From Bacteriovoracaceae bacterium (GTDB taxonomy: Bacteria > Bdellovibrionota > Bacteriovoracia > Bacteriovoracales > Bacteriovoracaceae), in assembly GCA_018649885.1 (NCBI GenBank), contig JABIHA010000127.1, positions 1 to 64,000 of the forward strand: a stretch of DNA of 64,000 nt. The letters are read 5' to 3'. A program made the translations under genes and the position numbers. The notes beneath the pieces were generated by a model. It had not been told where the DNA came from. It saw only the letters and a list, made by a program, of their open reading frames with translations, and made no database searches. Positions 27,264 to 60,270 of the stretch are shown one piece after another (within the stretch, counting starts at the first letter, position 1; the number at the start of each line of letters is the position of its first letter).

Positions 27264-27292
27264 TGTAACATTTTGATCGGTGATGACACTAA
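27264..27292 (+). promoter_or_regulatory. Putative ECF promoter, copy 1
   Basis: TGTAACA-ttttgatcggtgatg-ACACTAA. Confidence 0.65.
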
Positions 27293-27323
27293 CAAGACAG
27301 TTACAACTTATGGGAGAAAATTT

Positions 27324-28151
27324 GTGAATTCATTAAAAAGAATTTTTATTGTCGGGTATTTAATGTCTCAAATGGGCAGTGTGATTTATTCGATTTATAA
27401 GCTGATTACAGGAAGCTCAGTTAATAGTTTTGGGCCTCCACTGCTTTCAGCTATATCTATAACTTTGTTCATTGGAAGCTTAATGCTCTTTCAAAAGACG
27501 GCCAGAACCAGTAGGTACCTTTGGTATTTGTGGCCAACCACAATTTTGGGCTGCTTTCTTTCCTATTGGTATTCTAATGAAGCTCTACCCATGGGCTTAT
27601 CCAGCGTTTCTGTACTGGGATTAATCCTCTATGTGTTTTGGTATTCAAATCTTTCTAAAAACGAAGGAAGGTTAAAAATAGGCCAGGTAATCCCAAGCTT
27701 CGAGCTCAGGGATTTAAATTCAAATGTTATTCAATCCTCTACTTTTCTAGGCCACAAAAACCTATTTCTCTTTTTTAGAGGAAATTGGTGTCCTCTATGC
27801 ATGGCCCAAATAAAAGAAGTTCAGGCCCACTATCAAAAAATTATTGGCAGTGGTTGTCAGATAAATTTGATCTCTCCCCAGTCCCAATCCCACACTCAAA
27901 GTTTGGCCCATAAGCTACAGGTTGATTTTAAGTTTTACAGAGACGAAAGTAGCGTTGCAGCGATCGCTCTGGGTATTAAGGCTCCAAAAAGTCTACCACT
28001 GGGAATGGAGCTGCTTGGATTCGACTCTGATACGGTGCTGCCAACTATCATCGTTACAGACGATGCTGGTAAGGTTATCTACTTTGATGTGGCGGATAAC
28101 TATAGAGTGAGACCAGGGACAGAAGAGTTTTTGAAATTTTTGAATATTTAA
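27324..28151 (+). CDS. Membrane-anchored AhpC/TSA (peroxiredoxin-like) protein
   Basis: About 4 TM helices, then FFRGNWCPLC and DNYRVRP; GTG start after GGGAG. Confidence 0.85.
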   Translation: MNSLKRIFIVGYLMSQMGSVIYSIYKLITGSSVNSFGPPLLSAISITLFIGSLMLFQKTARTSRYLWYLWPTTILGCFLSYWYSNEALPMGLSSVSVLGLILYVFWYSNLSKNEGRLKIGQVIPSFELRDLNSNVIQSSTFLGHKNLFLFFRGNWCPLCMAQIKEVQAHYQKIIGSGCQINLISPQSQSHTQSLAHKLQVDFKFYRDESSVAAIALGIKAPKSLPLGMELLGFDSDTVLPTIIVTDDAGKVIYFDVADNYRVRPGTEEFLKFLNI

Positions 28152-28267
28152 ATTAGAGACTTTATCTCACAAATTCTTTCAATGTATCAGAGCATAATAG
28201 TTGCCTAGACTTCTGAGTCATCTGAGCTACAATTTCAAAAAAATTTTTCGACACAGGAATTTTGCTC

Positions 28268-29842
28268 ATGAAACAACTGCTCATTTTTTTATTTCTACTG
28301 CCTTGCGCCTTTGGTGCTGACCTCAAAGAAATTCTCTCCTTTGAACTTGGTACCACAATAAGTTGCGCACATTTAAATGAGAACGGAGCACACTCAATTG
28401 TTTGTGAGGGACTTTCTGTAGATAAATTTAAACTCCCAGCTAGTATGAATAATCCAGATATGTTCTCTGTTGGATTTAACCATCTCTGTGCAACCAAAGG
28501 TTCAAAACTTGTTTGTACAGGCCCTGGACTTAGTATTTCTAGGTCTGTTAGCTCTCCATCTCAGCTCAGCTCGGGCAAAGGTTTTGCTTGTCTTCAGGAG
28601 AGTGGAAACCTTGTATGTTTTGGTTCAAAAAAGAGCAGTCGTCTTAGCACTCCTAGCATAAGATCAGTGAAGAAGATTAGTCTTGCTGATTCCCATGGCT
28701 GTGCGCTCGACGAGTACGCGGCTGGTAAGAATAGAGTTGTATGCTGGGGAGATACAAGGTTCGGCAAAGTTGATGTGCCGGCGATGGTGAACCCTGTAGA
28801 TATATCAGTAGGTAGGGCGTTCAGCTGTGCCATTGATCAAGTATCAAAAGATATTAGAACTATTAGATGTTGGGGAAAGAATGACAAGGGCCAATCTTCT
28901 CCAGTTCTCGCCAACTACCCACTTTCACTAACAACTGGAAAAGAGCACGGCTGTGTAATTGATCAGAAAAATCACTGGGGTGAAACAAAAGTTCTTTGCT
29001 GGGGCTCTAACCAATATGGCCAATTAAACATCCCAGTTATTAAAGACAAAGATCCACTGCTTGTAAGATCAGCAAGCTATTATAACTGTATTTATTTTGA
29101 AGACCATGGCATCGAGTGCTTTGGTGGTGATGATTTTGGACAACTTGGAATTTCCAGTTGGCTCTTTGGTTTCACACCAAATGCAAAAATTCTTTCCAGA
29201 AAAATTAACACCAGAAAAGCAGGTGTTGCCTTATTTTATAACCCTTCCAATGTAGATGTGGTTAAGACAAAAGATGGCGAGGCCTATAATGCCAAAAACT
29301 ATATAGAGAAAAATACCAAAAGAAAGCTGACCACTTTTACAGATATGTCTGAAACAAAACTTAAAGGCGTACTTGCTACTAATGGAACACTAGTATTTCC
29401 AGAGTTTGAAAAAGGAAGTTTAACTTTAGGAAGTAATCAAACCAAGATGATACAAAAATGGCTGAAGGCAGGTAATAGCATTATTGTTATGGGCGGAAAT
29501 TATAATCTCAATTTTGCTAAAGTAGTGACAGGCTCTGGTGTCACAAAGACCTATCGTTCAGGCACTGTGAATTACGATGCTACAGCAGCAAAAAACACGC
29601 CCTTTCAAGGAAAAGCGAAGACTCTTCCCAATCCAAGTGATTCATCTAATCGTATGACCCTAGGGAGCTTACCGGCCACGGCTAAGGCCATATACAAGGA
29701 AGGAGTAAGTGCAGGGGTGGTTCTATTCAAAACTGGCAAAGGCCACGTGGTTTACCTTTGCTGGGATTGGTATAATGCAAAGCCTGTGGGGGCAATGGAC
29801 GGTGGTTGGCTTGACGTTTTCGGTGAAGCCCTACGACTTTAA
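28268..29842 (+). CDS. Secreted RCC1/BLIP-II-like repeat protein
   Basis: Repeated G..H.CA.....V.CWG.N..GQ units. Confidence 0.85.
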   Translation: MKQLLIFLFLLPCAFGADLKEILSFELGTTISCAHLNENGAHSIVCEGLSVDKFKLPASMNNPDMFSVGFNHLCATKGSKLVCTGPGLSISRSVSSPSQLSSGKGFACLQESGNLVCFGSKKSSRLSTPSIRSVKKISLADSHGCALDEYAAGKNRVVCWGDTRFGKVDVPAMVNPVDISVGRAFSCAIDQVSKDIRTIRCWGKNDKGQSSPVLANYPLSLTTGKEHGCVIDQKNHWGETKVLCWGSNQYGQLNIPVIKDKDPLLVRSASYYNCIYFEDHGIECFGGDDFGQLGISSWLFGFTPNAKILSRKINTRKAGVALFYNPSNVDVVKTKDGEAYNAKNYIEKNTKRKLTTFTDMSETKLKGVLATNGTLVFPEFEKGSLTLGSNQTKMIQKWLKAGNSIIVMGGNYNLNFAKVVTGSGVTKTYRSGTVNYDATAAKNTPFQGKAKTLPNPSDSSNRMTLGSLPATAKAIYKEGVSAGVVLFKTGKGHVVYLCWDWYNAKPVGAMDGGWLDVFGEALRL

Positions 29843-31663
29843 CATGCTTTCAAAGCGGTCGATGCTTTTTTCGACAGTTTTTAAACTACCCAGCCAAAAT
29901 GACGGCGCTTCAATATCTTCATTAAAATATTTTGTTATAAGAGATTCGGCACTCATAGTGCCAGTGTCTCTTAATATTTTTTTATAGAGACCCCGAAAAT
30001 CATCACCATATTTTTCTTTTTTATCATAAATGCCCAAGCTAAATAAATAACCAAATAGATAGGGGTAGTTGTAAAAAGAAATTGAAGAAAGAGAGAAGTG
30101 CATTTTGGTGGCCCAAAACATTGGGTCATATTCTGATAGAGTATTTTCATACCACAACTTCCAAGATTCATTCATCATGGTCTTTAACTCACTTGGATCA
30201 AGAGTCGCTGATTGTCTTGCTTCAACGAATCTCTTTTCAAACTCAAATCTGGCGGGGATATTAATTAACATTCTAGAAGCACTAACAGCGTCTTCCCAGC
30301 ACATTTCAAATTTCTCACTTTCATTTTGCCCGTGCGTGTACAGATAGTCTCTTACAAGTGTTTCAGCAAAGATTGACGCTGTTTCAGCTAAGGTCATGGA
30401 GTAGGCAATATGACTGAGTGGCATGTCTTTCATGATCCAGTTGTGATAGGCGTGTCCAAGCTCATGTGCCAGGATAACAACAGAAGTCATGGTCCCATTA
30501 AAAGTCATAAACACTCTAGGATTTCTAGTTGTATAAAACTTAGTACAGTAGGCACCTGGGTTTCTGTTTTCACTTGGCCGTGCATCTATCCAACCATTTT
30601 TGTGCATAAGTCTGGCAAATTCTCCCATTTCTGGATCAAACTCAGAAAAAGCACCCGCTATGATATCCATTGCCTCACCAAAGCCAAGAAGTGTGCTCTC
30701 GCTTTCATTACAAGGAGTAGGAGCAGATAGGTCCCATGGGCCTAGCTTTTCAAGCTGTAGTGTCTCTGCCATACCTTCCAAAGCACGCTGACCAATCCGT
30801 CTATTTTCATAAGTTGTAGTAAGCAGTGTATCTAGGGTCTTTCTAGTTATTCGAGATTGATGGCAAGACACATCTAAGTAGTGCAGATCTTTTTTATTAG
30901 ACCTTATAGTTCTATCATCACTCCTCCAACCATTGATATTATTTAAAATTGCAGCTGCACTACATTCGTGGACACTCCAGGACTGCTGAATGGATCTCCA
31001 GGCTTTTTCTCTAAGCGTTCGATTTCCCTCTGTCAGCATGCTAGCAGCTTGTGCGTAGCCCGTATCCTGACCATCGATAGAACACTTAAGACTTCCGGCC
31101 AAATCAGAGTACAATTTACCCCAGGCCTGAACCCCACTCTTTGAAAATGTAGAAATGAGAGATTCCTCTGTTGTACTCAAGAGGTGATCGCTCATTATTC
31201 TTTCTCTGTGAATCAGGAAATCTCTTTGTTTTATGGTTTCATTTTTTAGAAGAATACCGAGTTGGTCTTCTCCAATCCTACTGATAAATATATCGAATGC
31301 AGCTAAATTATTATTAAATTTGGAGTATAGCTCGGTAAGGCGGTCTCTTAGTTTCTTGGCACTACCATTTTGTGAGTTGGTGCTAAGAAGACATCTACTA
31401 AAAGTTGAAAGAGTACCTAAAATAGTATGGAATTCTTCTGCTTGAATATAAATTTGGCTAATTATGGGAGTGATCTCATCAATTTGTGAATTTTCTAGAT
31501 GACTAATATCCGCCAGAAGTGCATCCACTGGTTCCACTAATTTTCTTAGATCTTCATTTTTCTTCGAGAGTATCAGAAGGTCACTTTCAATCTTTGGGTC
31601 ATCTAGGTCCCTATAAATATTAGTGTTATTCCATTGGGGGCAATCAGTGATTTGTTCTTTCAT
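29831..31663 (-). CDS. pepF: M3 oligoendopeptidase F family
   Basis: GAYC, AHELGHAYH, AETAS.F.E and FYNYPYLFG motifs. Confidence 0.92.
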   Translation of the reverse strand: MKEQITDCPQWNNTNIYRDLDDPKIESDLLILSKKNEDLRKLVEPVDALLADISHLENSQIDEITPIISQIYIQAEEFHTILGTLSTFSRCLLSTNSQNGSAKKLRDRLTELYSKFNNNLAAFDIFISRIGEDQLGILLKNETIKQRDFLIHRERIMSDHLLSTTEESLISTFSKSGVQAWGKLYSDLAGSLKCSIDGQDTGYAQAASMLTEGNRTLREKAWRSIQQSWSVHECSAAAILNNINGWRSDDRTIRSNKKDLHYLDVSCHQSRITRKTLDTLLTTTYENRRIGQRALEGMAETLQLEKLGPWDLSAPTPCNESESTLLGFGEAMDIIAGAFSEFDPEMGEFARLMHKNGWIDARPSENRNPGAYCTKFYTTRNPRVFMTFNGTMTSVVILAHELGHAYHNWIMKDMPLSHIAYSMTLAETASIFAETLVRDYLYTHGQNESEKFEMCWEDAVSASRMLINIPARFEFEKRFVEARQSATLDPSELKTMMNESWKLWYENTLSEYDPMFWATKMHFSLSSISFYNYPYLFGYLFSLGIYDKKEKYGDDFRGLYKKILRDTGTMSAESLITKYFNEDIEAPSFWLGSLKTVEKSIDRFESMLKS

Positions 31664-31827
31664 GAGGGTTTCCAGTGTCTAATTGAATAGGGATTGTATC
31701 AATTTTTCCATTCATTGCCTAGCGATTGGTTCCTGAAGGGAACCATATGTGGGCAATTATTCGCTTTTTATTGCCATTGAGATCAATTAAGAATGTCTCA
31801 GTCAATTACTCAAAAAAGGGAGTTACC

Positions 31828-32535
31828 ATGTATAAGACAATTTTTTTATTTTTATTTGCTTGCAGCGCTTTTGCTGCAGATGCCCCTCCTACTCAGGAGC
31901 AGGTTACAAAATTACTAAGCAGCAATGCCAATGCTTTTTTAAAAGAGCATGTTCTAGATTTTACTAGTGGCAAAAAAGTTGTTTATAGAGCGGAGCTTCG
32001 ATTTAAATATGAAGATCAAAAGGTTGGAGAAAATCTCTATGAAAAATCTATGTATTTAACAGGAACTGTATTTGAAGAAAGAGGGGTCAAGGTATTTAGA
32101 TTTACAAATGAGCTTGGACGTGGTTTGAGTTTCTATAAAATTTCTCATAAGGATCAAATCATAGTTAACCTTAATTCAGTTGTTCCTGGCCCTTTGGGTA
32201 AGCTTTCACCTTACGGTGCATTTATAGAAACATCTGATATTGAAATTAAAAGACAAAGTGATGAAGACAGCTTTGATGAGGATATTTCTCAGCTATCGTT
32301 TAAGGATATTCCTTTTCAATTGCTTGTAGGTGATATTAACCATCCTGATCTAGGTAGGGATAAGGGGCTTGTAAGTTTGTCCATATTTCGAATTGCGCCT
32401 GATGAGTTAAATTATGAAAGTATTAGGGCGGTAAACAGCCATTTAGTTTCAATGCACTTAAAAAAGAGAACCCATTTATCAAAGGGGAAAAAGACAATAG
32501 GCTGTCGAGGTTATTTAATATGCACTACCTTATAA
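31828..32535 (+). CDS. Hypothetical secreted protein
   Basis: GGGAG RBS before MYKTI; signal peptide. Confidence 0.7.
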   Translation: MYKTIFLFLFACSAFAADAPPTQEQVTKLLSSNANAFLKEHVLDFTSGKKVVYRAELRFKYEDQKVGENLYEKSMYLTGTVFEERGVKVFRFTNELGRGLSFYKISHKDQIIVNLNSVVPGPLGKLSPYGAFIETSDIEIKRQSDEDSFDEDISQLSFKDIPFQLLVGDINHPDLGRDKGLVSLSIFRIAPDELNYESIRAVNSHLVSMHLKKRTHLSKGKKTIGCRGYLICTTL

Positions 32536-32862
32536 ATAAGCCACAGGATATTTTGGTAGGCGAGAGCTATTTTAGCGATGAAAGTTGTACTCCTCACATT
32601 TCAGCAGTTGTCAGGTGCTATGCTAAAGCCTCTTTCCATTTCGAACTTCCTTTTGGATTTCTATCAAAATCGAGGGCCACACTTGGGGGAATGACTAAAT
32701 TTGAAATTAGTAAAAAAATTAAATGCCTTGGCTGGTAATTGCCCAAATTGTAATTTTTTCATGGTTCATAGTCCGCAAATTGTTCACAGCATTCAATATC
32801 TCCTTTGATCTGGAGAGTTCCTATAATAAAGATAAGTAACATCAAATTAAAAAGGACCAATT

Positions 32863-33249
32863 ATGCGGATTTTGTTTACTACCATGATATTTCTATTTTC
32901 TACTTCGATTTTCGCCCAAGACAGTCGTGAGTGCATAATAGATGACATCGTAGGAGTGGATGCATTGGCCCAATATCTTGAAGATGGCGTTTGTCCTACA
33001 GGCAGTGAGGAGTCTTATCTGGCCTTTTGTGATGCTATAGACTGTGTTCACTTAAGGAATTTAGAAAGCGAAACACCGGAGCACTCAGTTTCACCTGCTC
33101 ATGTGGCCATTGATGTTGAAGTTGATCCCAGTGTCACTATTGTAAAAGGAAAATCAGTAAAACCAGTAAAACAAATGACTCAATTTGAAAAAGATCTAGA
33201 GTTATTAAAGAAGGCCTACCCAAATCATTGGGTCTCAATGGGGCCTTAA
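32863..33249 (+). CDS. Hypothetical secreted protein
   Basis: AAGGA RBS, signal peptide, 4 Cys. Confidence 0.7.
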   Translation: MRILFTTMIFLFSTSIFAQDSRECIIDDIVGVDALAQYLEDGVCPTGSEESYLAFCDAIDCVHLRNLESETPEHSVSPAHVAIDVEVDPSVTIVKGKSVKPVKQMTQFEKDLELLKKAYPNHWVSMGP

Positions 33250-33457
33250 AGAGTTTAATTAGCGCTCAGTTTGTAAAAAAATCGTAGAAATTCAATGTAT
33301 CCATTTGATAATACAGCCACCTGTTAAAAAATAGACAGGGCCGGAAAAGTTACACTTTCCCTGTTTCCGAAAATCGTCCGCCTGTACCATAGTTCATAAG
33401 AAAACTATTTAAAAATTGGTAAATAAAAATGATTTGTGTCAAATCGAGGAGATTAAA

Positions 33458-35563
33458 ATGAAACAATCAATTGGACCGTTTATCGCACTAAGCTTGATAT
33501 TATCAGGTGGGTTAAGTGCTGCTGAACAAAAGAAAGCAGACATTATTCTTAAAGAGTCTAGAACTTTTAAGATGGTAACCCCACTAGTCTTAGCTCATAA
33601 AGAAGATCTATTAGAAGAAGAAAGAAATCCATGGATAACAGTTTTTGAAGGCTCTGATAAATATGAGGCTAAAGTAATTACTCCAGTAAATAGCGCTGAG
33701 GTTACCTGTACAATTAAAGGTGGCAAAGCGGGAGATTCAATTTCTGAAACTCAGCAAAGTTTTTCACCTATTGCTGGTGAAATAGTGCAATGTAGACAGC
33801 CAATAACATCAAAAAAACTTTATACTGACTTGGTTGTAAGTTATGAGTTGAAAAAAGTTTCAGCTAAAAGTGAAGATGTTGATCAAGAACTTCATAGTGT
33901 AGGCACTGTTGTAAAGGAAGAGATTGAAAAAGATCAGCTTTCTTCAATGGCAGTTCTGTTAATGGAAGCCTCAAAATTTAACCCAATTGCTGATTTTTCT
34001 AGAGAATGGAAAGTTCACAATAAAGATGTGGAAATCGTTACATTGAAAGAAGGCGAAATTCTAATTTATAGAGGTGCCGAAGGTCAATGGACAAAAAAGA
34101 CACCTAGAATTCACAAATATAGTCAAAGAGAAGGTGCGCTTAAGCCTTTCACAAAAGGATTTTTAAAAGATATCTTTTCAAGTGATAAAGTCACTTTCGG
34201 TCCAGATGGTGATAGCAATAGATTAGCAAGAAGAAAGCAATCAAGACTTCCTTTTCCTGAAGCTAATCCATATAGTGTTGCTTGTGGTCAGTATGATTAC
34301 TACTCAGTATATAAAGGGCTAGCATTTACAGGTGCTAATACTCAAATTCAAATTCATCAAAACTCTGAGCTTAAGCATGTATGTGCAGTAAATGATAATG
34401 CTCGCGCTCTTAAGCTAAACGAAGAAGAAAATGGCTTTACAATAAAAGGTTATCTTTTCAAAAAATCTGATCTTAAAGATAGAATTGATGCCATGGTAGC
34501 AGACCTAGAAGCAAGTAGAGAAATGCTCGAAAGAGAAATGAATGAAGATAACAGATCTGAAGTGACTGGTATTATTAGCTCACTTCTGGCAGCGAATGGC
34601 AGAATGTTTAAAAAAGTAGAACAATCTGTTTTTGACATATCAATGGAACAAGTCGCAGTTGCGGTTGCAGGTAGAGACGAAGCTGCCGCCGGTAGAGTTG
34701 CTGCTGCTGAAGAAGCTGCTGAACAAAGAAGAGTAGAGCTTGAAGCAGAAGCAGCACAAGCACTGGAAGAAACAAAAAGAAAAGAAGCTGAAGCTGCTCT
34801 TGAGATGGCAGAAATGAAGCGTCGAATTCACAGACTTGAAGCAAACAGGTATTTCCCTGAAAGTGAAACTATCACTGGAACTTACAAGACAATGAAAGTG
34901 ACTCTTGTACCTCAAAATATTGATGGTAAAGTTGGTTATCAACTTGTAAGTGAGAGGCTTTTTGATTCTCCCAATAGTGATGGTGAAATTTCAGTAGAGT
35001 TTAAGTTTTTACCAGCTGAGCATATTTTTAATACTCAAATTGATTTCAGCGATGATGTTGAGAGTCGTGAATTCAGCATCTGCCCTGCATGGCTTGATGA
35101 GGGATTTAGTAACAATATCTTAGGTAAGATTACAGAACTTTCAATTAAGGAAGATGGCTCAGGTGTAGTTTCAGTATTGAAATCACATATTCGACCATAC
35201 GAAACATACAAATGTACTTCAGCAAAAAATAACTTTTCTATTGGTAAGTCAACTAGAAGAGAAAGCTATGAATTTTGCTATGTAGGAGCTGTTTCTGAAG
35301 AAGGTACAGAGCTTGTAGTAACACCAGATTTGATTAGAGCTGTATACGATTCGGATAATACAGCTGTTAACTACACAAAAACTGTAATGGCCGATTCTAG
35401 TGAAGAGCCACATGGTTTTTTCACGATGGAGCCACTTACTTATACTGTGTCTGAAGGTCAACAACATGTTACTGGTCAACCCTACTGTGTTAGTGCTGAC
35501 AACATCGTCGAGTTTGATCCATCACTGTTGGTTCAACCAAACCTTGATAGAATTGAAGAATAA
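33458..35563 (+). CDS. Large secreted hypothetical protein with central coiled coil
   Basis: GAGGAG RBS, signal peptide, Ala/Glu-rich helical segment. Confidence 0.8.
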   Translation: MKQSIGPFIALSLILSGGLSAAEQKKADIILKESRTFKMVTPLVLAHKEDLLEEERNPWITVFEGSDKYEAKVITPVNSAEVTCTIKGGKAGDSISETQQSFSPIAGEIVQCRQPITSKKLYTDLVVSYELKKVSAKSEDVDQELHSVGTVVKEEIEKDQLSSMAVLLMEASKFNPIADFSREWKVHNKDVEIVTLKEGEILIYRGAEGQWTKKTPRIHKYSQREGALKPFTKGFLKDIFSSDKVTFGPDGDSNRLARRKQSRLPFPEANPYSVACGQYDYYSVYKGLAFTGANTQIQIHQNSELKHVCAVNDNARALKLNEEENGFTIKGYLFKKSDLKDRIDAMVADLEASREMLEREMNEDNRSEVTGIISSLLAANGRMFKKVEQSVFDISMEQVAVAVAGRDEAAAGRVAAAEEAAEQRRVELEAEAAQALEETKRKEAEAALEMAEMKRRIHRLEANRYFPESETITGTYKTMKVTLVPQNIDGKVGYQLVSERLFDSPNSDGEISVEFKFLPAEHIFNTQIDFSDDVESREFSICPAWLDEGFSNNILGKITELSIKEDGSGVVSVLKSHIRPYETYKCTSAKNNFSIGKSTRRESYEFCYVGAVSEEGTELVVTPDLIRAVYDSDNTAVNYTKTVMADSSEEPHGFFTMEPLTYTVSEGQQHVTGQPYCVSADNIVEFDPSLLVQPNLDRIEE

Positions 35564-35581
35564 AAAAACAAAAATAGTTGT

Positions 35582-35612
35582 AAGGGGCCTTTTTCCAGGG
35601 CCCTTTTTTTTT
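35582..35612 (+). terminator. Intrinsic terminator
   Basis: AAGGGGCCT...AGGGCCCTT hairpin followed by a T-run. Confidence 0.8.
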
Positions 35613-37754: not shown

Positions 37755-37768
37755 AACGGGAATGAATA

Positions 37769-38245: not shown

Positions 38246-38256
38246 GAGAGGGGATA

Positions 38257-50085: not shown

Positions 50086-50159
50086 ACTGAATTTTTGAGG
50101 GACCGCCATAGTACCCGCCGCCCAATTTTCAGTCAATGATTGTTCTGCTAAAAGAGGGT

Positions 50160-51887: not shown

Positions 51888-52070
51888 AAAAAAGACCCCC
51901 GATTTGGATTCCGAACATACCTTGCCAGTGGGTCAATGTCATCCAAAAAGGAATCATGTTTTACTCTATGTGGTTGAAAATAGGGACGAAAAATACCTGA
52001 CGAAAACACTAAGGTTTATTCGGTAAGCGTCCGAAAGGCCTTGTGAACAATTTGTATTGAGGAGTGTGTT

Positions 52071-52499
52071 ATAAAAATTAGTGATGAGCTCAAAGATTTA
52101 CTTCCCTGTGCAATGCCAAAGTTGGCCTTGAAGACGGCCAGGTTAGCTCAGCTGTGTAGCTCACTTAGAAAAGATGGCTACCGCATCGAGCTGTTCCACG
52201 ACTTTAAGCATGAAGTTCATTCTTTCAAGGAGCTTGGTAGTCTTTTTGGCATTGAGTTTGTGACAAATATTACTCACTACCTCGAAGATTACACTCAATT
52301 TATGATGACTCTACCTATGCCCTCAAAAGATCATCAATATCATCTTGAAGGCTATATTGAGCTACTTCTGGACTATGTTGCACAGATCGCTATTGGAATT
52401 GATTTCGACACAGGTATTTGGGTCACTGAGTTTCACCAGCACTTAGTCAAAGAAAATATGTTGCGCGAAAATAGAGAAGTTGCTAGTTGTAGTAAATAA
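52071..52499 (+). CDS. Hpt-like helical protein
   Basis: FKHEVHSFKELGSLFG resembles the Hpt H-box; GAGGAG RBS points to ATA at 52071, first ATG is at 52113. Confidence 0.55.
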   Translation: MKISDELKDLLPCAMPKLALKTARLAQLCSSLRKDGYRIELFHDFKHEVHSFKELGSLFGIEFVTNITHYLEDYTQFMMTLPMPSKDHQYHLEGYIELLLDYVAQIAIGIDFDTGIWVTEFHQHLVKENMLRENREVASCSK

Positions 52500-52520
52500 A
52501 TCTCTATCCTTTGAGCGCTG

Positions 52521-53216
52521 ATGAAAAAAAAAGTCGCAATCGCAATATTTGTAAAAACCCCCAAATTTTCATCTTGTAAAAGTCGCTTGGCCAAAACAAT
52601 TGGCACTAGTGCTGCCGTTAAGTTTCATTTATTCTCCTCAAATATTGTGGGAGAAACAGTATCTAGTGTGACTCAGGCCCAAGGGTTTTGGTCAATCGCT
52701 GAGCTTGAAGCAATGGATGGCGAATACTGGGGTGGTGGATTAAAAAAAATCCATCAAGGAAAAGGATCTTTAGGGGAGAGACTGGATAGAGTTTACCAAA
52801 CTCTGTCACAAGACTTCGAAAAAGTGATCTTCCTTGGAGCTGATTGTCCACAAGTTGAAAAATCTCAAATCGATCATGCCTTAAAAAAACTTGAAAAAGC
52901 TGATTTTGTATTTGGTCCTTCAGAAGATGGAGGTTTTTATCTATTTGGTGGAGCCGCGCCCATCTCTAGAGAAATTTGGAATGAAACTCGCTACAGCGAA
53001 AGTGACACCTTAGCTCAAATTTCCAGAAGCTTAAAATCCATTGGTAGTGTTGAGATTATTGAAAGTCTATTTGATGTAGATCATTTTGATGAATTTAAAA
53101 AATTAGGCACTGCTCTAGGAAGCTTTCAAAACTTGACTCCAAAAAAGAAAGAGTTACTTAATTTTATTGATCACTTAGTTGAAGAGCAGGAAGCTCCTCC
53201 AAGTACACAAAACTGA
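52521..53216 (+). CDS. TIGR04282/DUF2064 family glycosyltransferase (arsenosugar-associated)
   Basis: KSRLA, QG.G.LG.RL, GADCP, GPSEDGGFYL and DVD motifs. Confidence 0.9.
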   Translation: MKKKVAIAIFVKTPKFSSCKSRLAKTIGTSAAVKFHLFSSNIVGETVSSVTQAQGFWSIAELEAMDGEYWGGGLKKIHQGKGSLGERLDRVYQTLSQDFEKVIFLGADCPQVEKSQIDHALKKLEKADFVFGPSEDGGFYLFGGAAPISREIWNETRYSESDTLAQISRSLKSIGSVEIIESLFDVDHFDEFKKLGTALGSFQNLTPKKKELLNFIDHLVEEQEAPPSTQN

Positions 53217-54097
53217 GCGCAAAACTTGTGGGCCAGATGTACTCTTGATAGAGACTCTTTAAGTGAATATCCCATCTCAAATTTGGGGTCATATGCTAGG
53301 AGTGTACAAGGCATAACCACTATTCGTGATTCTCCCTTTTTCTTAATGACCATCCTCTGTGTTGCACACATCTGATCTTCTGGTCTTTTACCGAGTATAC
53401 TCCAGCAACCAGTACTTATTTCAGGGACATTTTTTTGTAGATCCATCTCGGGGAAGATCACCAACTTTTTCTCGATATCAATACTTATACCATGAGAATT
53501 TAATAATCTTTGGTAGCTGCATTTTGCATCAGTACTAGTTTCTTCTTTGAGAGATCTTCCAGCAATTGAAATATTAAATCGGCTCACAAATAACCACTCA
53601 ACCATCTTTAGACACGAATCAAATGTGCCTTGCCCTCTTTCCTTCTCATGCAGTTCTTTTGTATGGTGATCAAGTGATATCCTGATATGCAATTTGTCAC
53701 TATAGCGTACTAACAAACTTAAAAGAGCAATTTTGTGCCTTTCTAAAACTCTGTGAGCATTGGTCAGCACTAGTACTTCGAATCCACGGGATAGAATTTC
53801 TTCTAAAATTTCTATGATTTGTGGATTCAAAAATGGTTCACCGCCGGTTAAACCTATTAAATTTGTGGTCATCTGATTTTCTTTGATTTCGTCAAGAAAA
53901 GGTGTGATATCTTTTGTTTCAATGAAAGACAGCCTGTCATTGCTAGGAGAGGATTCAATATAACAGTTCTTGCAGCTAAGGTTGCATTTTGTGCCAGTAT
54001 TAAACCAAAGAGTTTTTAGTAGCTGAAAATCAACAAAGGCCCTTTGTTTCCCACATACTGTGGACTCTGGGTTTTTAAAGTAGAGGTTAGTATCCAT
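53171..54097 (-). CDS. Radical SAM protein (ArsS-like paralog)
   Basis: CNLSCKNC, TGGEPF, C-terminal Cys cluster; likely start MDTNL at 54097. Confidence 0.88.
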   Translation of the reverse strand: MDTNLYFKNPESTVCGKQRAFVDFQLLKTLWFNTGTKCNLSCKNCYIESSPSNDRLSFIETKDITPFLDEIKENQMTTNLIGLTGGEPFLNPQIIEILEEILSRGFEVLVLTNAHRVLERHKIALLSLLVRYSDKLHIRISLDHHTKELHEKERGQGTFDSCLKMVEWLFVSRFNISIAGRSLKEETSTDAKCSYQRLLNSHGISIDIEKKLVIFPEMDLQKNVPEISTGCWSILGKRPEDQMCATQRMVIKKKGESRIVVMPCTLLAYDPKFEMGYSLKESLSRVHLAHKFCAQFCVLGGASCSSTK

Positions 54098-54854
54098 TAA
54101 GATTCCAATCATAGTCCATGTAATCAATTCTAGTCGATTTATTCTTTATGAGTTGTTGCTCAGAAATATCTTGGGTAAAGTAAGTTGCTAGAAAATTTGG
54201 GACACTACCAAACTTTTTCTTAAAGTCACCTTTGTACCATTTAAAAATTTTACTCAAATTAAGTGTCTGCTTTTTTAAGTTCCAGCGATTTTTTTTCCTA
54301 TCAGTAATAAAAGAAAAAGTGGCCTTTTCAAGTTGAGAATTTAAAGAGGTTGGGTAGAAGGCTTCAGGGTATAGGTTTGGGCAACCAATAGACGCGCAGT
54401 TCACTGCAAAGTGAATCCTGGGTTCATTGAAGTTTTTTCTAATCATGTCGTGCTCAATACCATCGAGACTTCTTTCTTCTTCAAGGAGAATGAAAAATTT
54501 CTTTTTCCAAGGACTGGTAAAAAGTGAGCCCAGCTTTTTAATTGATTCTAATGGGAAATTATCTACTATGAGTTTTACGGTGAAGGCATTGTAAGCATTG
54601 ATCAGAAATGCCAGCTTTTCATTTTTTGAAAATGCATTGTATTCTTTTTTACTTACAGCAGTTAAGCTACCCAGGTATTTAACCAAAAGATTTTTTTCTT
54701 TTTTTACTCCACGGTAATTTACCAAGTTTTGCTTACCATTTTTTCTCATATTCTTTTTGAGAATCATTGACCACTCTCTATGCGAGTGATCGAAGGCGTA
54801 AGAATTCGATAGGACAAAAAATGCGCAAATTGTGAATAGTGATTTTAGCAACAT
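54087..54854 (-). CDS. DUF547 domain protein (secreted)
   Basis: LAFLINAYNA, EPRIHFAVNCASIGCP, LSKIFKWY, YDW.LN. Confidence 0.93.
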   Translation of the reverse strand: MLLKSLFTICAFFVLSNSYAFDHSHREWSMILKKNMRKNGKQNLVNYRGVKKEKNLLVKYLGSLTAVSKKEYNAFSKNEKLAFLINAYNAFTVKLIVDNFPLESIKKLGSLFTSPWKKKFFILLEEERSLDGIEHDMIRKNFNEPRIHFAVNCASIGCPNLYPEAFYPTSLNSQLEKATFSFITDRKKNRWNLKKQTLNLSKIFKWYKGDFKKKFGSVPNFLATYFTQDISEQQLIKNKSTRIDYMDYDWNLNGY

Positions 54855-55900
54855 GATCCCTCCGTAGAGTTTTTGCCACTAACCCCTTCAAATGGTGATG
54901 AACTACCACAGCCAGGAAAAATGCCATAATGGTCGTCAAAGGTTCCATAAAAATCGAAATGTTTTTCAAAACGAGTATTTTTTAACATCAAAAATGTATT
55001 TCCACAGACTTTCTCCAACTTTGCTTTTTCAAAGTTGTGATGGCCATCTAAATCAAATGATGTGGGTTGTTCTGAAATTGTTCCTTTATAGGCCACACTC
55101 TGTCCATAATCTTCACAGTCATCCTCAAGTCCATCAACTTTAAATAGTCTGTAGGTTAGGGAGTAAAATTCTGTTCCCTCTAGTTTTTCTTTGATCGAAT
55201 CATTTTCAATGGTAATTGGTTTTTTGCTAACACAACGAGCATCACGAAAGCCCACGGCCTTTGCAATCTTCAAAAAATCATTCCAGTAAAGAGCTCCACT
55301 AAGACATTCTCCGTAGAGAACTGGATCAGCTTGCAATTCGGCTGATATTCTTCTGCTGGCGTAAACATCTGAGAAATAGAATTCGCCACCAGACTTTAAT
55401 TTGTTGAAACAATCTCTTAGAACTTTTTCTTTATTTTTACATAAGTTAATCACGCAGTTTGAAATGATTAAATCAAAGTAATCATTTTTAAGGGGAGTTT
55501 CTTCCATTTCATCAATATTGCCTTTGATAAAACTAATATTGGGTTTTTGGTAAGAAAATTTCTCCGTGTGATAATCTACATACTTATTTGCAACGAGAAG
55601 TTGCTCATCTGTCATATCAAGACCTACAACTTCACCACTTTCACCCACGAGTTTTGAGGTGATATAAGCATCTCTGCCACTTCCAGATCCAAGATCGAGA
55701 ACTTTAAGGCCTGCTAGCTCACTGGGAATGGCAAGACCACAGCCGTAATACTTTCTATGAACTTCATCATGGACTAAGGACATTGCCTCTTTGATAAAAT
55801 TTGGCGGCGGCTCTAATGTGCAGCACGCGTTTGTTTTTAAATCATCAGACTCTTTTAATTCTTTTCCGTAGTACTCTTGAACTTCTTGGTGGATGTCCAT
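54845..55900 (-). CDS. arsM: Arsenite methyltransferase
   Basis: LKTNACC, YYGCG, LDLGSGSGRD, SNCVINL, GECLSGA and terminal CC. Confidence 0.9.
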   Translation of the reverse strand: MDIHQEVQEYYGKELKESDDLKTNACCTLEPPPNFIKEAMSLVHDEVHRKYYGCGLAIPSELAGLKVLDLGSGSGRDAYITSKLVGESGEVVGLDMTDEQLLVANKYVDYHTEKFSYQKPNISFIKGNIDEMEETPLKNDYFDLIISNCVINLCKNKEKVLRDCFNKLKSGGEFYFSDVYASRRISAELQADPVLYGECLSGALYWNDFLKIAKAVGFRDARCVSKKPITIENDSIKEKLEGTEFYSLTYRLFKVDGLEDDCEDYGQSVAYKGTISEQPTSFDLDGHHNFEKAKLEKVCGNTFLMLKNTRFEKHFDFYGTFDDHYGIFPGCGSSSPFEGVSGKNSTEGSCC

Positions 55901-58035
55901 ACTTTTTCACCTCGCACATAGCTATGAAATTTTTCTATAAATCTTAAAAGTTTTTCTGGTTTTCTATTTTGCTTATAAACTCCGGCCAGGTATTTATTTG
56001 CCTCGCTCATTGTTGGGTAGGGATGAATAGTTCCCAGTATTTTATTTAACCCCAATCCATGCTTCATAGCAAAGGTAAATTCGCTTAAAAGCTCTCCAGC
56101 ATTGTATCCAACTATGGTGGCACCTAAAATTCTATCACTTCCTGTCTTGGTGATTACCTTCACAAATCCTGCTGCTTCACCTTCACAAATGGCCCTATCC
56201 AAATCATCTATGCCATATTTTGTGACTTCATATGAAAGTCCTTGCTCTTTAGCTGCTCTCTCATTCACTCCCACAGTTGCAACCTCTGGATCGAGATAGG
56301 TGCACCAAGGAATTGTTTGATAGTCCACCTTGAATTTCTTCACTGCACCAAAGAGTGCATTAACAGATGTGTACCAAGCTTGATGGGCCGCTACGTGAGT
56401 TAGCTGATAGGGCCCTGTTACATCTCCGCAGGCGTATATATTGGGATAGTTTGTCTGTAGATACTCATTGGCCTCTATAGTGCCATTTCTTCTTAGTTCA
56501 ACCCCTAGCTCTTCAAGGCCAAATCCTTTGGTGTTTGCCTTTCTTCCAACTGCCACTAGCACCTTATCAAATTCGATGATGACTTCACCGATAGCACTAG
56601 AGCAAGTAAGCCGGTTACCCTTAAACTTAATGGCCTTGTGAGTTGTGAGAATATTGACTCCTTCTTTTTCGAGCTTATTTTTGACAAATTCACTGACTTC
56701 CTCATCTTCTCTAGCTAAAAGCAAGGGCGCCATTTCTACAACGCTAACACTTGAGCCCAGTCTATTAAATGTTTGTGCCATTTCTAGACCTATTGGTCCT
56801 CCTCCTAGAACAATAAGTCTTTTGGGAAGCTCTTCTAATTTCCAAAGATTTTCAGATGTTAATACATCTGCTTTTTCAATCCCTGGAATTGGGGGGACAA
56901 ATGGTGAGGCACCCGTTGCAACGACAATATTTTTTGTTTTAATAATTTGGCCGTTAACTTCGACTTCCCAAGGAGATATAATTTTGGCCTCTCCAGAGAA
57001 ACATTCAACTCCCAGAGATGAATACCTTTCCACAGAGTCATGGGGTTCAATTTTTTCTATAACCTTTTGAACTCGATTCATTACATTTTTAAAGTCGAAT
57101 TCTATTTCAGTACTTGTTAATCCCAGCTCATTTGCCTTTTTGGCCATATGAAGAATTTTTGCTGATTTAATAATTGCCTTTGAGGGGACACATCCCGTGT
57201 TGAGGCAATCACCTCCCATTTTATCTTTTTCAATTAAGGCGACTCTAGCTTTAACAGCGGCTCCAATATAAGATGTCACAAGTCCAGCTGCTCCTCCTCC
57301 GATGGCCACAATATTGTAGTCAAACACCTCGGGCTTTTTGAACTTTTTGTAAACAGAGTTTGCTTTAAATTTATCTACAATCTTTTTTGAGATAATTGGA
57401 ATTAGGCCAAGTACGGTGAATGAGAGAAGGATTGAAGGAGATAGTATGCCTGAGATCGATTTTAATTTTGAGAGCTGAAGTCCTGCATTAACATAGGCCA
57501 TAGTCCCTAGAATCATCCCTATTTGGCTGACGAAAAAATAAGTGTGAGTTTTAATTTTGGTAAGGCCCATTACAAGGTTAACTAAAAAGAAAGGGAAAAG
57601 AGGAACCAGCCTTAAAGAGAAGAGGTAGAATGCTCCCTCTTTTTCAATTCCCTTATTAATTGAGTTGATCTTGCTGGCAAATTTCTTTTCAACAAAATCT
57701 CTTAAAACTAACCTTGCCACCAAAAAAGCCAGCGTTGCTCCTATGGTACTGGCAAAGGAAACAATGATTGTCCCAGTAACAAATCCAAATATCGCACCAC
57801 CAACCAAGGTAAGAACAGTCGCGCCTGGAAGTGATAGTGCGGTAGAGACAATATAAATGAGAGCATAACTGCCAATAGTTAATATTTGATTTTGAGCATA
57901 AAAAGATCTGATGGAATCTAAATTTTGTTGGAAGTAATCCAGACTTAGATATGATTGAAGATTAAAAATCTTTACTACGGCTAGTAAAATTAAAATTAAT
58001 AAAATTATCAAAATTTTTGTTTGCTTCTTTTTCAT
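55855..58035 (-). CDS. TVP38/DedA (SNARE-associated) membrane domain fused to a pyridine nucleotide-disulfide oxidoreductase
   Basis: LRLVPLFPFF in the N-terminal TM domain; GGGAAG, GGDCLNTGCVPSK, HPYPTMSE; no MerA C-terminal CC. Confidence 0.92.
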   Translation of the reverse strand: MKKKQTKILIILLILILLAVVKIFNLQSYLSLDYFQQNLDSIRSFYAQNQILTIGSYALIYIVSTALSLPGATVLTLVGGAIFGFVTGTIIVSFASTIGATLAFLVARLVLRDFVEKKFASKINSINKGIEKEGAFYLFSLRLVPLFPFFLVNLVMGLTKIKTHTYFFVSQIGMILGTMAYVNAGLQLSKLKSISGILSPSILLSFTVLGLIPIISKKIVDKFKANSVYKKFKKPEVFDYNIVAIGGGAAGLVTSYIGAAVKARVALIEKDKMGGDCLNTGCVPSKAIIKSAKILHMAKKANELGLTSTEIEFDFKNVMNRVQKVIEKIEPHDSVERYSSLGVECFSGEAKIISPWEVEVNGQIIKTKNIVVATGASPFVPPIPGIEKADVLTSENLWKLEELPKRLIVLGGGPIGLEMAQTFNRLGSSVSVVEMAPLLLAREDEEVSEFVKNKLEKEGVNILTTHKAIKFKGNRLTCSSAIGEVIIEFDKVLVAVGRKANTKGFGLEELGVELRRNGTIEANEYLQTNYPNIYACGDVTGPYQLTHVAAHQAWYTSVNALFGAVKKFKVDYQTIPWCTYLDPEVATVGVNERAAKEQGLSYEVTKYGIDDLDRAICEGEAAGFVKVITKTGSDRILGATIVGYNAGELLSEFTFAMKHGLGLNKILGTIHPYPTMSEANKYLAGVYKQNRKPEKLLRFIEKFHSYVRGEKVWTSTKKFKSTTEKN

Positions 58036-58078
58036 ACTCGCCTATATATTTATTTCAGGTTCATCCCGGTTACCTTTG

Positions 58079-58107
58079 TTAGTGTGCCGAGATGGTATAT
58101 TGTTACA
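58079..58107 (-). promoter_or_regulatory. Putative ECF promoter, copy 2 (arsM operon)
   Basis: Minus strand reads TGTAACA-atataccatctcggc-ACACTAA. Confidence 0.7.
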
Positions 58108-58143
58108 CAAGATTATTTATTAAAAGGTGCAAGCATTAAAGTA

Positions 58144-58716
58144 GTGGACCCCGAATTTACCCAGAAGTTGAAAAATGGAGATAAAGACGCCATGTCTAAA
58201 ATCGTCCATGACTACTCGTCCCATCTATTCAAAGCAGCTCTGGGTCTAGGTTTTGATGAAAATGAGTCCAAAGAGTTGACTCAAAAAACCATGGTTAAAT
58301 TCGTGGAAGTGGTCCATAAATTTGAGGGTAGGTCTCATATTCGGACCTTTTTATTCGGCATTTTCTATAATCACGTTCATGAGGCGAGAAGATCCTTCAA
58401 AAAGGCCCAAAGCCATGACCCTATTGATGAAGTGGCGGAGTCGATGTTCGATGAGCGTGGCAATTGGCAAAAAGATGCCAGGGTAAGTTCCCCAGAAAAG
58501 TTTTTAGAAGCCTGTCAAACTATGGATATCATTGAATTATGCTTAGATAAGTTACCCATAAGACAGAAGATGGCCTTCACACTAAAATTTGTTGATTCCG
58601 CCGAAACGAGTGAAATATGTAACTTATTGACGGTTTCTGACACTAACCTAAGACAGCTGCTTTTTAGAGCAAAGAGTAGGCTGAGACTCTGTGTTGAGTC
58701 TCACATGAATAAATAA
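58144..58716 (+). CDS. ECF RNA polymerase sigma factor
   Basis: FEGRS..RT.L.GI region 2, FDERG.W, EIC..L.VS..N...LLFRA..RLR.C region 4; start uncertain. Confidence 0.92.
   Translation: MDPEFTQKLKNGDKDAMSKIVHDYSSHLFKAALGLGFDENESKELTQKTMVKFVEVVHKFEGRSHIRTFLFGIFYNHVHEARRSFKKAQSHDPIDEVAESMFDERGNWQKDARVSSPEKFLEACQTMDIIELCLDKLPIRQKMAFTLKFVDSAETSEICNLLTVSDTNLRQLLFRAKSRLRLCVESHMNK
58618..58646 (+). promoter_or_regulatory. Putative ECF promoter, copy 3 (inside the sigma gene, facing the anti-sigma)
   Basis: TGTAACT-tattgacggtttctg-ACACTAA. Confidence 0.5.
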
Positions 58717-58726
58717 GGACGCGAGA

Positions 58727-58972
58727 ATGTTAAGTTGCAAAGAACTTTACGAACATTTGGCCAGTGGCAAAGAGCTTACTAGGATCCAAAAGCTTCAGTA
58801 TCCTATGCACCTTTTTATGTGTCACAACTGCAAAAAAATTGCCTCTCAATTTAAAACCATAAATTCTAGCTTTAAAAAAGTCGTGACCAAGAGAATGGAA
58901 AAGGCAAGTGAAGATAAAATTAGCGAGCTGGAAAAAAGCGTTTGGGAAGAAGTAGAGCGTAAAATTTCTTAA
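58727..58972 (+). CDS. Soluble zinc-finger (zf-HC2/ZAS) anti-sigma factor
   Basis: SCKE...HLFMCHNC (HxxxCxxC), directly after the sigma gene. Confidence 0.88.
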   Translation: MLSCKELYEHLASGKELTRIQKLQYPMHLFMCHNCKKIASQFKTINSSFKKVVTKRMEKASEDKISELEKSVWEEVERKIS

Positions 58973-60236
58973 AGTAAACTTCGAAGTAATTAAACAAAAT
59001 TGGAAAATACCACATGTGGACTAAAACCTCTGCAAGTCGGTTGTACTGGTAATATCCATAAGGGGTATAAGACAGGCAGCTAAAAAAGGCGTAGGCCATG
59101 GCCCACTTATTTTTTGTATATAGTGAAAATAGTAAAAACCAAATTGTGTACCAGGGATTGAATACAGGTGAGAAAAATATCATGGAGCTGTGAAGGATCA
59201 CTCCTGCTTCAAAAAAGGCACCTTTTTGCAGAGGCCTTGTCATCACTTTTAAATGCACAAGAGTCACGACCATTAAAAATGCTGCAAATGTAATCTGCCT
59301 CGCCAGTGGAATTTCTAGTTCAAGTAGATTAACTAAAAGTGAGTAAAATCCGGGAATCCATACCCAGTCCTTACTAAAACTGAGTACACCACTAAGTAAA
59401 TTCAAATCAGTGATGTGGAACCAAAAAAATAGTCCAAGAGATAGGGGAATAAAAGCTGAAGCTAATATGCTCCTAACTTTGTTAATAGGTGTGGTTTTAT
59501 TTGTAATAAAAAAAATAGGGAGAGTCACCACGCCAATGAGTTTGCTCCAAAAGCTCATGAAATAAAGTCCATAGGTTAATAGCGTTCGTTTCCCATCTTT
59601 TTCCTTCAGCGCAAAAAGAGGTAATAGAAAAACTGCTGCAAAAAGATCTATATGAACAGCTTGAATATATTCTTTTTGTAAAAGAGGAAAAAATACACAT
59701 AAGTAAAGAGCAGGCGTATTTCTTTTTGTGAAAAACCTAAATACTAAAGCAATCAGAAGTGCATTGAGGAGCATTAAACCCCGGAAAGCAAATTCGAAGG
59801 GGAGCTTGGCCACCAGGCTAAACCACAGTATTCCCAGCGGAGGATAAATCGTCGTGAGGTTGGAAAACCCAATACGATTTTTAGCCGCGTATTCGATATG
59901 TGACAGGGCCGCGTGGTCTGGGGATAGAAGGTAGGGGCTGAGGCCACTGGCCATAACTTTCCCCTCCCATATATAGCGGTAATGATCATTTTCAAAAATT
60001 GGTGAGTGAGAACACATTACCATTACCACACCGATGAAAAAGGCCACAGGTGAGAGTTCAAAATTAGTGGAGTGTTTTTTTAAAAGCACTAAGCACAAGG
60101 CCAGAAATCCAAAATTGTATAAGATGTAATAGATACCACCAAAGTACTCCGGTCCCGGAGATTTTAGTGCGTAGGAAACTACTGCTAGGAAAAGTGCATT
60201 AAGTATCCAAAGAAAATTGATCTTATTTTTTGTCAT
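58920..60236 (-). CDS. Polytopic GT-C-type (DUF2029/GT87-like) glycosyltransferase
   Basis: D.YRY.WEG, TIYPP, H.D, K and PWY motifs; many TM helices. Confidence 0.82.
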   Translation of the reverse strand: MTKNKINFLWILNALFLAVVSYALKSPGPEYFGGIYYILYNFGFLALCLVLLKKHSTNFELSPVAFFIGVVMVMCSHSPIFENDHYRYIWEGKVMASGLSPYLLSPDHAALSHIEYAAKNRIGFSNLTTIYPPLGILWFSLVAKLPFEFAFRGLMLLNALLIALVFRFFTKRNTPALYLCVFFPLLQKEYIQAVHIDLFAAVFLLPLFALKEKDGKRTLLTYGLYFMSFWSKLIGVVTLPIFFITNKTTPINKVRSILASAFIPLSLGLFFWFHITDLNLLSGVLSFSKDWVWIPGFYSLLVNLLELEIPLARQITFAAFLMVVTLVHLKVMTRPLQKGAFFEAGVILHSSMIFFSPVFNPWYTIWFLLFSLYTKNKWAMAYAFFSCLSYTPYGYYQYNRLAEVLVHMWYFPILFNYFEVYFKKFYALLLPKRFFPAR

Positions 60237-60241
60237 ATCCA

Positions 60242-60270
60242 TTAGTGTGAAATATATGTAAATTGTGACA
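60242..60270 (-). promoter_or_regulatory. Putative ECF promoter, copy 4 (GT-C gene)
   Basis: Minus strand reads TGTCACA-atttacatatatttc-ACACTAA. Confidence 0.7.

Follow-up and report, generated by a model that had tools for sequence, protein, structure and literature searches.

The 64,000-nucleotide stretch at positions 1 to 64,000 of contig JABIHA010000127.1 (assembly GCA_018649885.1, a Bacteriovoracaceae bacterium; hereafter the window) encodes a predicted extracytoplasmic function (ECF) sigma factor, starting at 58144, which is followed by a small soluble predicted zinc-finger anti-sigma (ZAS) protein. Four copies of a promoter-like motif are present in the window, and one of them lies inside the sigma gene. 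Our sequence comparisons indicate, with a probability of about 0.82, that the motif is read by this sigma factor and that the intragenic copy drives the anti-sigma gene as negative feedback. The intragenic copy is a dual-coded site and the most conserved member of the motif set.

The motif and its copy inside the sigma gene

A pattern search recovered TGTMACW-N15-ACACTAA, or TGTMAC-N17-CACTAA in its hexamer form, four times in the window, confirming the positions, strands and spacing given in the original prediction (Table 1). The motif has the layout of an ECF-type promoter, with two conserved blocks at a fixed spacing upstream of gene starts. Each copy had been said to face a nearby gene start and all four do (31, 44, 81 and 6 nt away), but the copy at 58618 is intragenic rather than intergenic. 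Dinucleotide shuffling of the window never yielded four copies (0/100, mean 0.01), a flattering figure because the pattern was derived from these same four sites. Across the genome (G000; 5.45 Mb, 38% GC), six matches occur at spacer 15, none at spacers 12–14 and 16–18, and one at 19. The genome-wide weight-matrix scan proposed as a check returned six sites scoring at least 21 bits at the motif spacer and none at nine other spacers, using a matrix trained on those same six sites. The two copies outside the window are on contig C72, upstream of an AhpD-like gene, and on contig C21, discussed below. A related element, TGTCAC-N17-CACTTA, is duplicated in this genome (C13, 1181–1209, and C109, 74287–74315); it points away from a gene whose product starts MTDHAWY, presumably resembling an acyl-CoA ligase, and has no open reading frame directly downstream.

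The –35 element of the intragenic copy is spelled by codons Cys159-Asn160 (TGT AAC) and the –10 element falls within codons Asp166-Thr167-Asn168 (GAC ACT AAC), with a predicted +1 near 58650–58653. The site spans the DNA encoding the sigma factor's own helix-turn-helix. We collected 144 sigma loci and kept 110 after merging identical ones; their records are labeled Bdellovibrionota, Acidobacteriota, Elusimicrobiota, Nitrospirota, Nitrospinota and others, and some look misbinned. A metagenome scan returned one near-identical copy of the locus (L018, merged with the window's gene) and 27 distant sigma factors, six of which are outgroups. The labels of L109 (Sulfitobacter) and L161 (Chitinophagales) conflict with the sigma tree, in which the two group with Halobacteriovorax and Elusimicrobiota; they are probably misbinned contigs or cases of transfer.

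In 65 of the 110 homologues, TGT[AC]A[CGT]-N17-CACTAA occurs exactly in the same codons, whereas 2000 runs of synonymous recoding with matched codon use averaged 3.3 and never exceeded 10. At loci above 50% GC, Cys159 is TGT in 26/27 genes versus 21/60 for other Cys codons, and Thr167 is ACT in 20/28 versus 25/218 for other Thr codons. The third base of codon 166 is C in 90/110 genes whatever the amino acid, with about 34 expected, and the seven most deviant third positions among 192 columns are those of codons 166, 167, 169, 159, 170, 160 and 161. The constraint thus covers both hexamers and the bases near the predicted +1. Conserved RNA structure was considered and rejected: folding of the region is weak (mean z of –0.41, with z below –2 in 8/85 windows) and does not explain the conservation.

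The sigma factor, its specificity and its probable regulon

The protein encoded at 58144 matches PF08281 and TIGR02937 above their cut-offs and PF04542 at 21.4 bits, below the cut-off of 24; it is short and has regions 2 and 4 only, as expected of an ECF sigma factor. TIGR02943 is its best family match (90.3 bits; cut-off of 162.2 not reached), and it has an extended sigma2–sigma4 linker that aligns with the FD..G.W linker of TIGR02943-type proteins. The three sigma4 cysteines (Cys133, Cys159 and Cys183 in the window) are all present in 90/110 homologues. A soluble ZAS protein is encoded immediately downstream at 100 of 108 loci, two of the 110 being too short to score, and in the window this is an 81-residue HxxxCxxC protein. 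Its Cys4-x23-His28-x3-Cys32-x2-Cys35 signature corresponds to the Cys/His-x23-26-HxxxCxxC motif of ZAS proteins (PMC7907618), and the layout resembles that of NMB2145 (PMC2893595).

These features bear on the ECF group, whose assignment the original prediction had left as a check. Group ECF293 (formerly ECF13) is described in the part of the PMC7826278 supplement consulted as having a long linker, three sigma4 cysteines, a soluble ZAS and promoter motifs that are 'not conserved'. The window's sigma shares the linker, cysteines and ZAS with ECF293, but it falls short of the TIGR02943 cut-off and sits on its own branch. Indeed, in our trees, which are quick trees, the window clade forms a 99% branch beside a 99% branch of Bacteroidota-type and proteobacterial members, with the fork left open. 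Its nearest named homologues are from Halobacteriovorax and Bacteriovorax, and the clade shares 27–32% identity with the proteobacterial members. A sigma-70 promoter scan around the sigma gene gave counts at chance level.

The attribution of the motif to this sigma factor, advanced in the original prediction, is supported by covariation between the protein and its predicted promoter. The counterpart of Arg170 in the alignment is Arg171 of E. coli RpoE, a residue that bonds to the G opposite the –31 C (PMC1540707) and whose position, when mutated, sets –31 specificity (PMC7776599); by analogy, Arg170 would read the same G. Among the 85 genes with an intragenic site within one mismatch, –31 is C in 25/27 Arg170 genes and T or G in 57/58 Gly170 genes, and residue 170 has the highest mutual information with the –31 base. 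The association persists when Asn160 is held fixed and the choice is synonymous, the codon being AAC in 21/23 Arg genes and AAT in 24/25 Gly genes (AAC in 1/25); other Asn codons of the same genes show no such split (AAC at 0.33 and 0.40). We also observed that TGTC at –35 occurs only with Gln at the position of RpoE Ser172 (4/13 Gln and 0/72 Val genes of the homologue set), and that all six WQ genes of a Bacteroidota-type set (L248–L274) read TGTCAG.

Covariation extends beyond the sigma gene. The flanks of the homologue loci contain 26 exact matches at the motif spacing, two of which fall inside bufferin coding sequence, versus 0–3 at seven other spacings. At intergenic flank sites, –31 is C in 9/10 Arg loci and 0/15 Gly loci, one His locus being set aside. 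We counted sites outside the sigma gene over 238 genomes; G000, one mixed-type genome and two His genomes are excluded from the averages. TGTMAC sites average 2.93 per genome in 27 Arg genomes, 0.45 in 29 Gly genomes and about 0.7 in 178 genomes with no sigma match. On a tree from which the motif region had been left out, the Arg/Gly state shows seven changes. The sigma factor at 58144 very likely uses TGTMAC-N17-CACTAA as its promoter.

From 10 relatives we fetched 51 exact motif sites: the intragenic site accounts for seven, about 14 are within genes in antisense orientation, a few lie in sense orientation inside other genes, and the rest are upstream of genes. The sites inside other genes are likely due to chance. 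We scanned 24 downstream proteins and found matches to thioredoxin, MsrA (5), MsrB (5), AhpC, a thioredoxin-reductase-like flavoprotein and the VTT fusion, as well as ArsM-like, radical SAM, DUF547, ferredoxin-like, DUF3179 and DUF4442 proteins. Four of the 24 have no Pfam match, including the bufferin BufA2 and two ZAS proteins; trxA and AhpD are among the regulon's marks in relatives. The predicted regulon of the motif is one of thiol and methionine repair, like those of Neisseria sigmaE and Haemophilus RpoE2. This coherent redox regulon, the spacing-specific enrichment beside the 110 homologues and the covariation of –31 with residue 170 bear out the proposed candidate ECF regulon.

What the intragenic copy probably drives

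As in the PrshA and rseA P3 cases discussed below, the window's sigma gene contains a predicted promoter of the sigma factor's own type upstream of the anti-sigma gene. The site is kept in 83 of the 100 genes with an adjacent ZAS gene versus none of the eight without. In all eight genomes lacking the adjacent gene (G013, G062, G139–G142, G148 and G149), a ZAS-like gene is found elsewhere with TGTMAC-N17-CACT[ACT]A just upstream. These genomes retain 2–7 TGTMAC sites each, which suggests that the specificity of the sigma factor outlasted the loss of the codons from its gene. We also noted a second ZAS-like gene without the motif in G062 and G013 (L241 and L242), at the position where several sister-genus genomes have a motif-bearing ZAS gene.

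A third arrangement appears where the ZAS gene has remained adjacent. Among such loci that lost the intragenic site, 7/16 have a site heading a co-directional operon, mostly bufA-DUF692, compared with 9/75 of the loci that kept it, with nine incomplete loci set aside. A motif site faces the sigma gene at 2/107 loci and faces away from it at 30/107. Positive autoregulation was rejected, as the two facing sites are no more than at control spacings. The feedback loop is probably purely negative, as with Corynebacterium PrshA, because the sigma gene so rarely faces its own motif. Provided that the motif belongs to this sigma factor, the intragenic copy is likely an anti-sigma promoter.

By analogy with Neisseria sigmaE/MseR, Haemophilus RpoE2/HrsE and Corynebacterium SigH/RshA, the ZAS protein would hold the sigma factor inactive, and thiol oxidation would release zinc from the ZAS and free the sigma. 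Redox-dependent release of a ZAS is a subject of the papers cited here. The resulting holoenzyme would transcribe the AhpC-like and AhpD-like genes, the oxidoreductase-arsM-DUF547-radical SAM operon and the GT-C-like gene. From the intragenic site it would yield an mRNA for the anti-sigma only, beginning about 75 nt ahead of the ZAS start codon. Since no site faces the sigma gene, activation would lead to more inhibitor without more sigma factor, and the response would shut down quickly.

The intergenic sites could be sigma promoters and the intragenic copy instead a roadblock or decoy that lowers sigma mRNA, or a source of small RNA. Interference would be physically possible, as the site lies in the path of sigma transcription, and in the window the ZAS gene overlaps a convergent gene that is predicted to be motif-driven. 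A roadblock should, however, survive relocation of the ZAS gene, yet none of the eight relocated cases keeps the site and the motif reappears before the moved gene. The constraint on both hexamers and on bases near the predicted +1 also argues against a roadblock, as does Corynebacterium glutamicum PrshA, which makes an anti-sigma-only mRNA from a nearly equal distance (PMC3489674). We consider this alternative unlikely. Slightly less probable again is that the sites are read by another factor, either a transcription factor or a second ECF sigma encoded on C29 (L185:1138–2198; G000:C29 from 33827 onward). Seven region-4 matches exist in the genome, and genomes without a sigma match still hold about 0.7–0.9 sites each, some up to 4. 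The C29 ECF gene is flanked on both sides by TGTCAC-N17-CGTAA and its product likewise carries Arg at position 171. Speaking against another reader are the differing –10 halves (CACTAA versus CGTAA), the way the –31 base tracks residue 170 of the window's sigma in its own gene, in the flanks and genome-wide, and the presence of the motif at the locus of this sigma across several phyla.

Finally, conserved residues (C-x7-T-N), codon bias or RNA structure might have given rise to the intragenic copy as a side effect. C159 and N168 are conserved at least 90%, genome codon use would bring the four codons together in the window's gene with a frequency of about 1.7%, a low value but one not to be dismissed post hoc, and a minority of windows do fold stably (8/85). 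Against this stand the 65 exact sites, where recoding reached at most ten, the small mean folding z and the fact that Cys and Thr codons conserved elsewhere in these genes follow GC content. Moreover, genes with the same residues but no ZAS neighbor lose the codons, and the different codons of a Bacteroidota-type sister group spell a different, published promoter. This explanation is close to refuted.

Several observations weigh against our reading that the window's sigma reads the motif and drives its inhibitor from the intragenic copy. (i) The C21 copy (L001:5583–5611; G000:C21 121582–121610, minus strand) is a perfect match but has no open reading frame downstream of it and points, in antisense orientation, into the 3' end of a DUF374 gene, which leaves one of the six genomic copies without a gene to drive; antisense RNA or chance are possible explanations. 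(ii) TGTAAK sites average 1.63, 2.24 and 0.9 per genome in Arg genomes, Gly genomes and genomes with no sigma match, respectively, and the Arg–Gly difference is not significant (p = 0.10, in rank tests that ignore kinship). (iii) Branch support is good for only three Arg/Gly pairs, each of which agrees or ties (sign test, p = 0.25). (iv) The C29 ECF motif shares its –35 half and spacing with that of the window's sigma and differs in its –10, making cross-talk possible between both sigma factors. (v) None of 24 relatives, among them 11 with the same divergent layout, was found to have the GT-C site. (vi) The eight relocation genomes form one or two clades and thus represent only 1–2 events, and the motif precedes 8/10 of their ZAS-like matches, leaving 2/10 without a site. 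(vii) The intragenic site is lost in 17 of the 100 ZAS-adjacent genes, and for 9–10 of these no upstream site was found, although three of them differ from the motif by only two mismatches.

Wider reach, neighboring features and meaning

To delimit the trait we turned to a Bacteroidota-type group, the phylum of G262, whose label comes from one record. TIGR02943 matches were found in 26/201 genomes of this phylum, and the site counts given next are our own tally over 26 loci other than that of G262. The same codons read TGTAAK-N16-CGTCTAA exactly in nine loci and close variants (TGTAAG..CGTCAAA, TGTCAG..CTACTAA) in about 11 more, whereas five have no site, including all three without an adjacent ZAS gene. 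Codons 160 and 166 are again the most deviant, with G. The predicted intragenic motif of this group is the published Neisseria sigmaE motif, GTMAGBWTT-N12-13-CGTCTAAH (PMC2893595). In the flanks of these loci, six copies lie at the motif spacing, three at the next and none at five others, and outside the sigma gene the motif is not enriched in five genomes (two sites versus three control sites). One gene of this group (L260) has lost its intragenic site and has a copy 111 nt upstream that faces itself.

The trait is wide but not universal. The full intragenic site is present in none of 10 proteobacterial genes, Neisseria included (loci from plasmid records, nine of 40 listed in one set and one of six in another). 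Neisseria gonorrhoeae has an exact site, TGTCAG-N17-GTCTAA, 2.66 kb upstream, heading an operon. A motif-like site was also seen in L247 (Sinorhizobium meliloti plasmid NZ_CP141213.1), where it lies just past the stop codon of a related ECF gene and before its ZAS gene rather than within the coding sequence. A TIGR02943 search of 301 genomes around G261 gave no match, and its control was also silent.

An internal anti-sigma promoter is a known mechanism, described for C. glutamicum sigH and E. coli rpoE. In C. glutamicum, PrshA lies inside sigH and produces an anti-sigma-only mRNA starting 62–66 nt before rshA, compared with about 75 nt predicted in the window (PMC3489674). The two systems share a ZAS gene directly after the sigma gene, an internal promoter of the sigma's own type and a thiol-stress regulon; sigH is expressed from housekeeping-type promoters, and PrshA has been proposed to allow fast shut-down (PMC3489674). 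C. glutamicum SigH belongs to another ECF group with a different motif (TGGAA..GTT), and its internal promoter has been tested whereas ours is predicted. PrshA was reported as a trait differing from Streptomyces coelicolor and Mycobacterium tuberculosis, and the portion of PMC3489674 consulted reports no silent-site conservation, covariation or relocation. E. coli rseA P3 is likewise a sigma-dependent promoter within the sigma gene that drives the anti-sigma gene; it lies more than 230 nt before rseA, outside the helix-turn-helix codons, the anti-sigma is a membrane protein and, unlike the window's sigma, rpoE is also positively autoregulated (PMC8595263).

Neisseria sigmaE/MseR and Haemophilus RpoE2/HrsE, both of group ECF293, resemble the window's pair in their long linker, three sigma4 cysteines and N-terminal Cys4 ZAS encoded immediately downstream, and target msrA/msrB as in the window clade (PMC2893595, PMC7907618). 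The promoter geometry is identical to that of the N. gonorrhoeae operon site, with –10 CACTAA in the window clade versus GTCTAA. Neisseria drives sigma and anti-sigma from an operon promoter, unlike the intragenic site of the window clade, and Haemophilus RpoE2 barely autoregulates (PMC7907618). We found no published description of the CACTAA motif, of this clade or of silent-site conservation of such a promoter; the part of the PMC7826278 supplement searched has no match to 'CACTA', and the ECF Hub logos or PMC7776599 datasets may contain the motif.

Table 1. Predicted promoters and genes discussed in the text, in window coordinates.
Feature	Position	Strand	Remarks
Predicted sigma-dependent promoter of the AhpC-like membrane protein gene	27264..27292	+	31 nt before the start
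Membrane protein with AhpC/TSA domain	27324..28151	+	GTG start inferred from a GGAGA ribosome site; reading frame open from 27273
TIGR04282 arsenosugar-type glycosyltransferase	52521..53216	+	136 bits, cut-off 134; transcribed toward the operon; no motif observed
Radical SAM protein, ending the predicted operon	53171..54127	–	ArsS model far under cut-off
DUF547 protein	54087..54854	–	
ArsM-like methyltransferase	54845..55900	–	Scores under every ArsM model's cut-off
VTT/DedA domain fused to a pyridine nucleotide-disulphide oxidoreductase	55855..58035	–	Opens the divergent operon
Predicted promoter of the divergent operon	58079..58107	–	44 nt before ATG 58035; points away from the sigma gene
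ECF sigma factor, ECF293/TIGR02943-related	58144..58716	+	190 residues; start codon inferred from homologues
Intragenic motif copy, predicted anti-sigma promoter	58618..58646	+	Sigma codons 159–168; 81 nt before ZAS ATG 58727
Soluble ZAS protein, predicted anti-sigma	58727..58972	+	81 residues; matches NF052368 at E 1.7e-6, under its cut-off
Multi-pass membrane protein, GT-C-like by weak similarity	58920..60236	–	
Predicted promoter of the GT-C-like gene	60242..60270	–	6 nt before ATG 60236, near-leaderless
TGTGAC-N17-CGTAA facing the GT2 gene	60264..60291	+	–35 bases in common with the GT-C site
GT2 glycosyltransferase	60306..61016	+	

The window also contains the weaker divergent match, TGTGACA-N15-TCGTAAT, that the original prediction had placed opposite the GT2 gene. 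It is present and faces that gene, but the candidate site fits the motif of the C29 ECF better than CACTAA. The TGTGAC-N17-CGTAA type has seven genomic matches at N17 and 0–4 at other spacers. Both the C29 ECF motif and the GT2-facing site resemble those of ECF16 (Bradyrhizobium EcfF/OsrA), which has –35 tGTAAC, –10 CGAA/CGTA, a membrane anti-sigma and an Msr-rich oxidative regulon (PMC3420878); its –10 and membrane anti-sigma are unlike the CACTAA sites of the window, whereas its –35 and Msr-rich regulon are alike. The C29 ECF has a membrane-type partner gene and a divergent gene for a haem-binding protein. At 60242–60291, a single 7-bp –35 stretch is common to two divergent promoter-like sites, which would be read by two different ECF sigma factors. 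The GT2-facing site was likewise not seen in the 11 relatives with the same divergent layout, and a conserved shared-palindrome design was ruled out, with no site in the 24 relatives; the GT sites are local gains at best.

As for the genes themselves, the GT-C label fared poorly, as the protein has no Pfam match and only a weak match to MptB (E 4e-4). The ZAS gene and the convergent GT-C-like gene overlap by 53 nt (58920–58972), and both are predicted targets of one sigma factor. The operon does not qualify as an arsenosugar biosynthesis cluster: NF038099 scores 81.6 of 400 bits and TIGR04167 69.6 of 300, and TIGR04282 alone passes. An APH-family phosphotransferase gene (61809–62729, minus strand) falls far under the cut-offs of all named aminoglycoside and macrolide phosphotransferase models.

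We favor, with less assurance than for the window locus itself, a broader proposal: in a wide ECF293-like lineage, the sigma factor's target promoter is written in the codons of the helix-turn-helix that reads it, and three interchangeable wirings keep the sigma driving its inhibitor. If so, these would be the intragenic site, a site before a relocated anti-sigma gene, and a site before an operon holding both genes. A change of specificity would need matched changes in one 40-bp stretch, one in the residue that does the reading and one in the base that lies 30 nt upstream, while the choice of amino acids in the domain would be limited by the promoter (Thr-Asn with CACTAA, Ser-Asn with GTCTAA). 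The locus would offer a compact case of protein–DNA coevolution within one gene, and a feedback known from single species would become a conserved design with natural controls. ECF motif prediction relies on upstream autoregulatory promoters (PMC7776599); the motifs of non-autoregulated sigma factors, reported as not conserved, would instead be readable from their own genes. Reading the motif from coding sequence would yield testable promoters and a redox regulon in predatory Bacteriovoracaceae, Acidobacteriota, Elusimicrobiota and the Bacteroidota-type group, and would place the uncharacterized oxidoreductase-arsM-DUF547-radical SAM genes under predicted oxidative-stress control.

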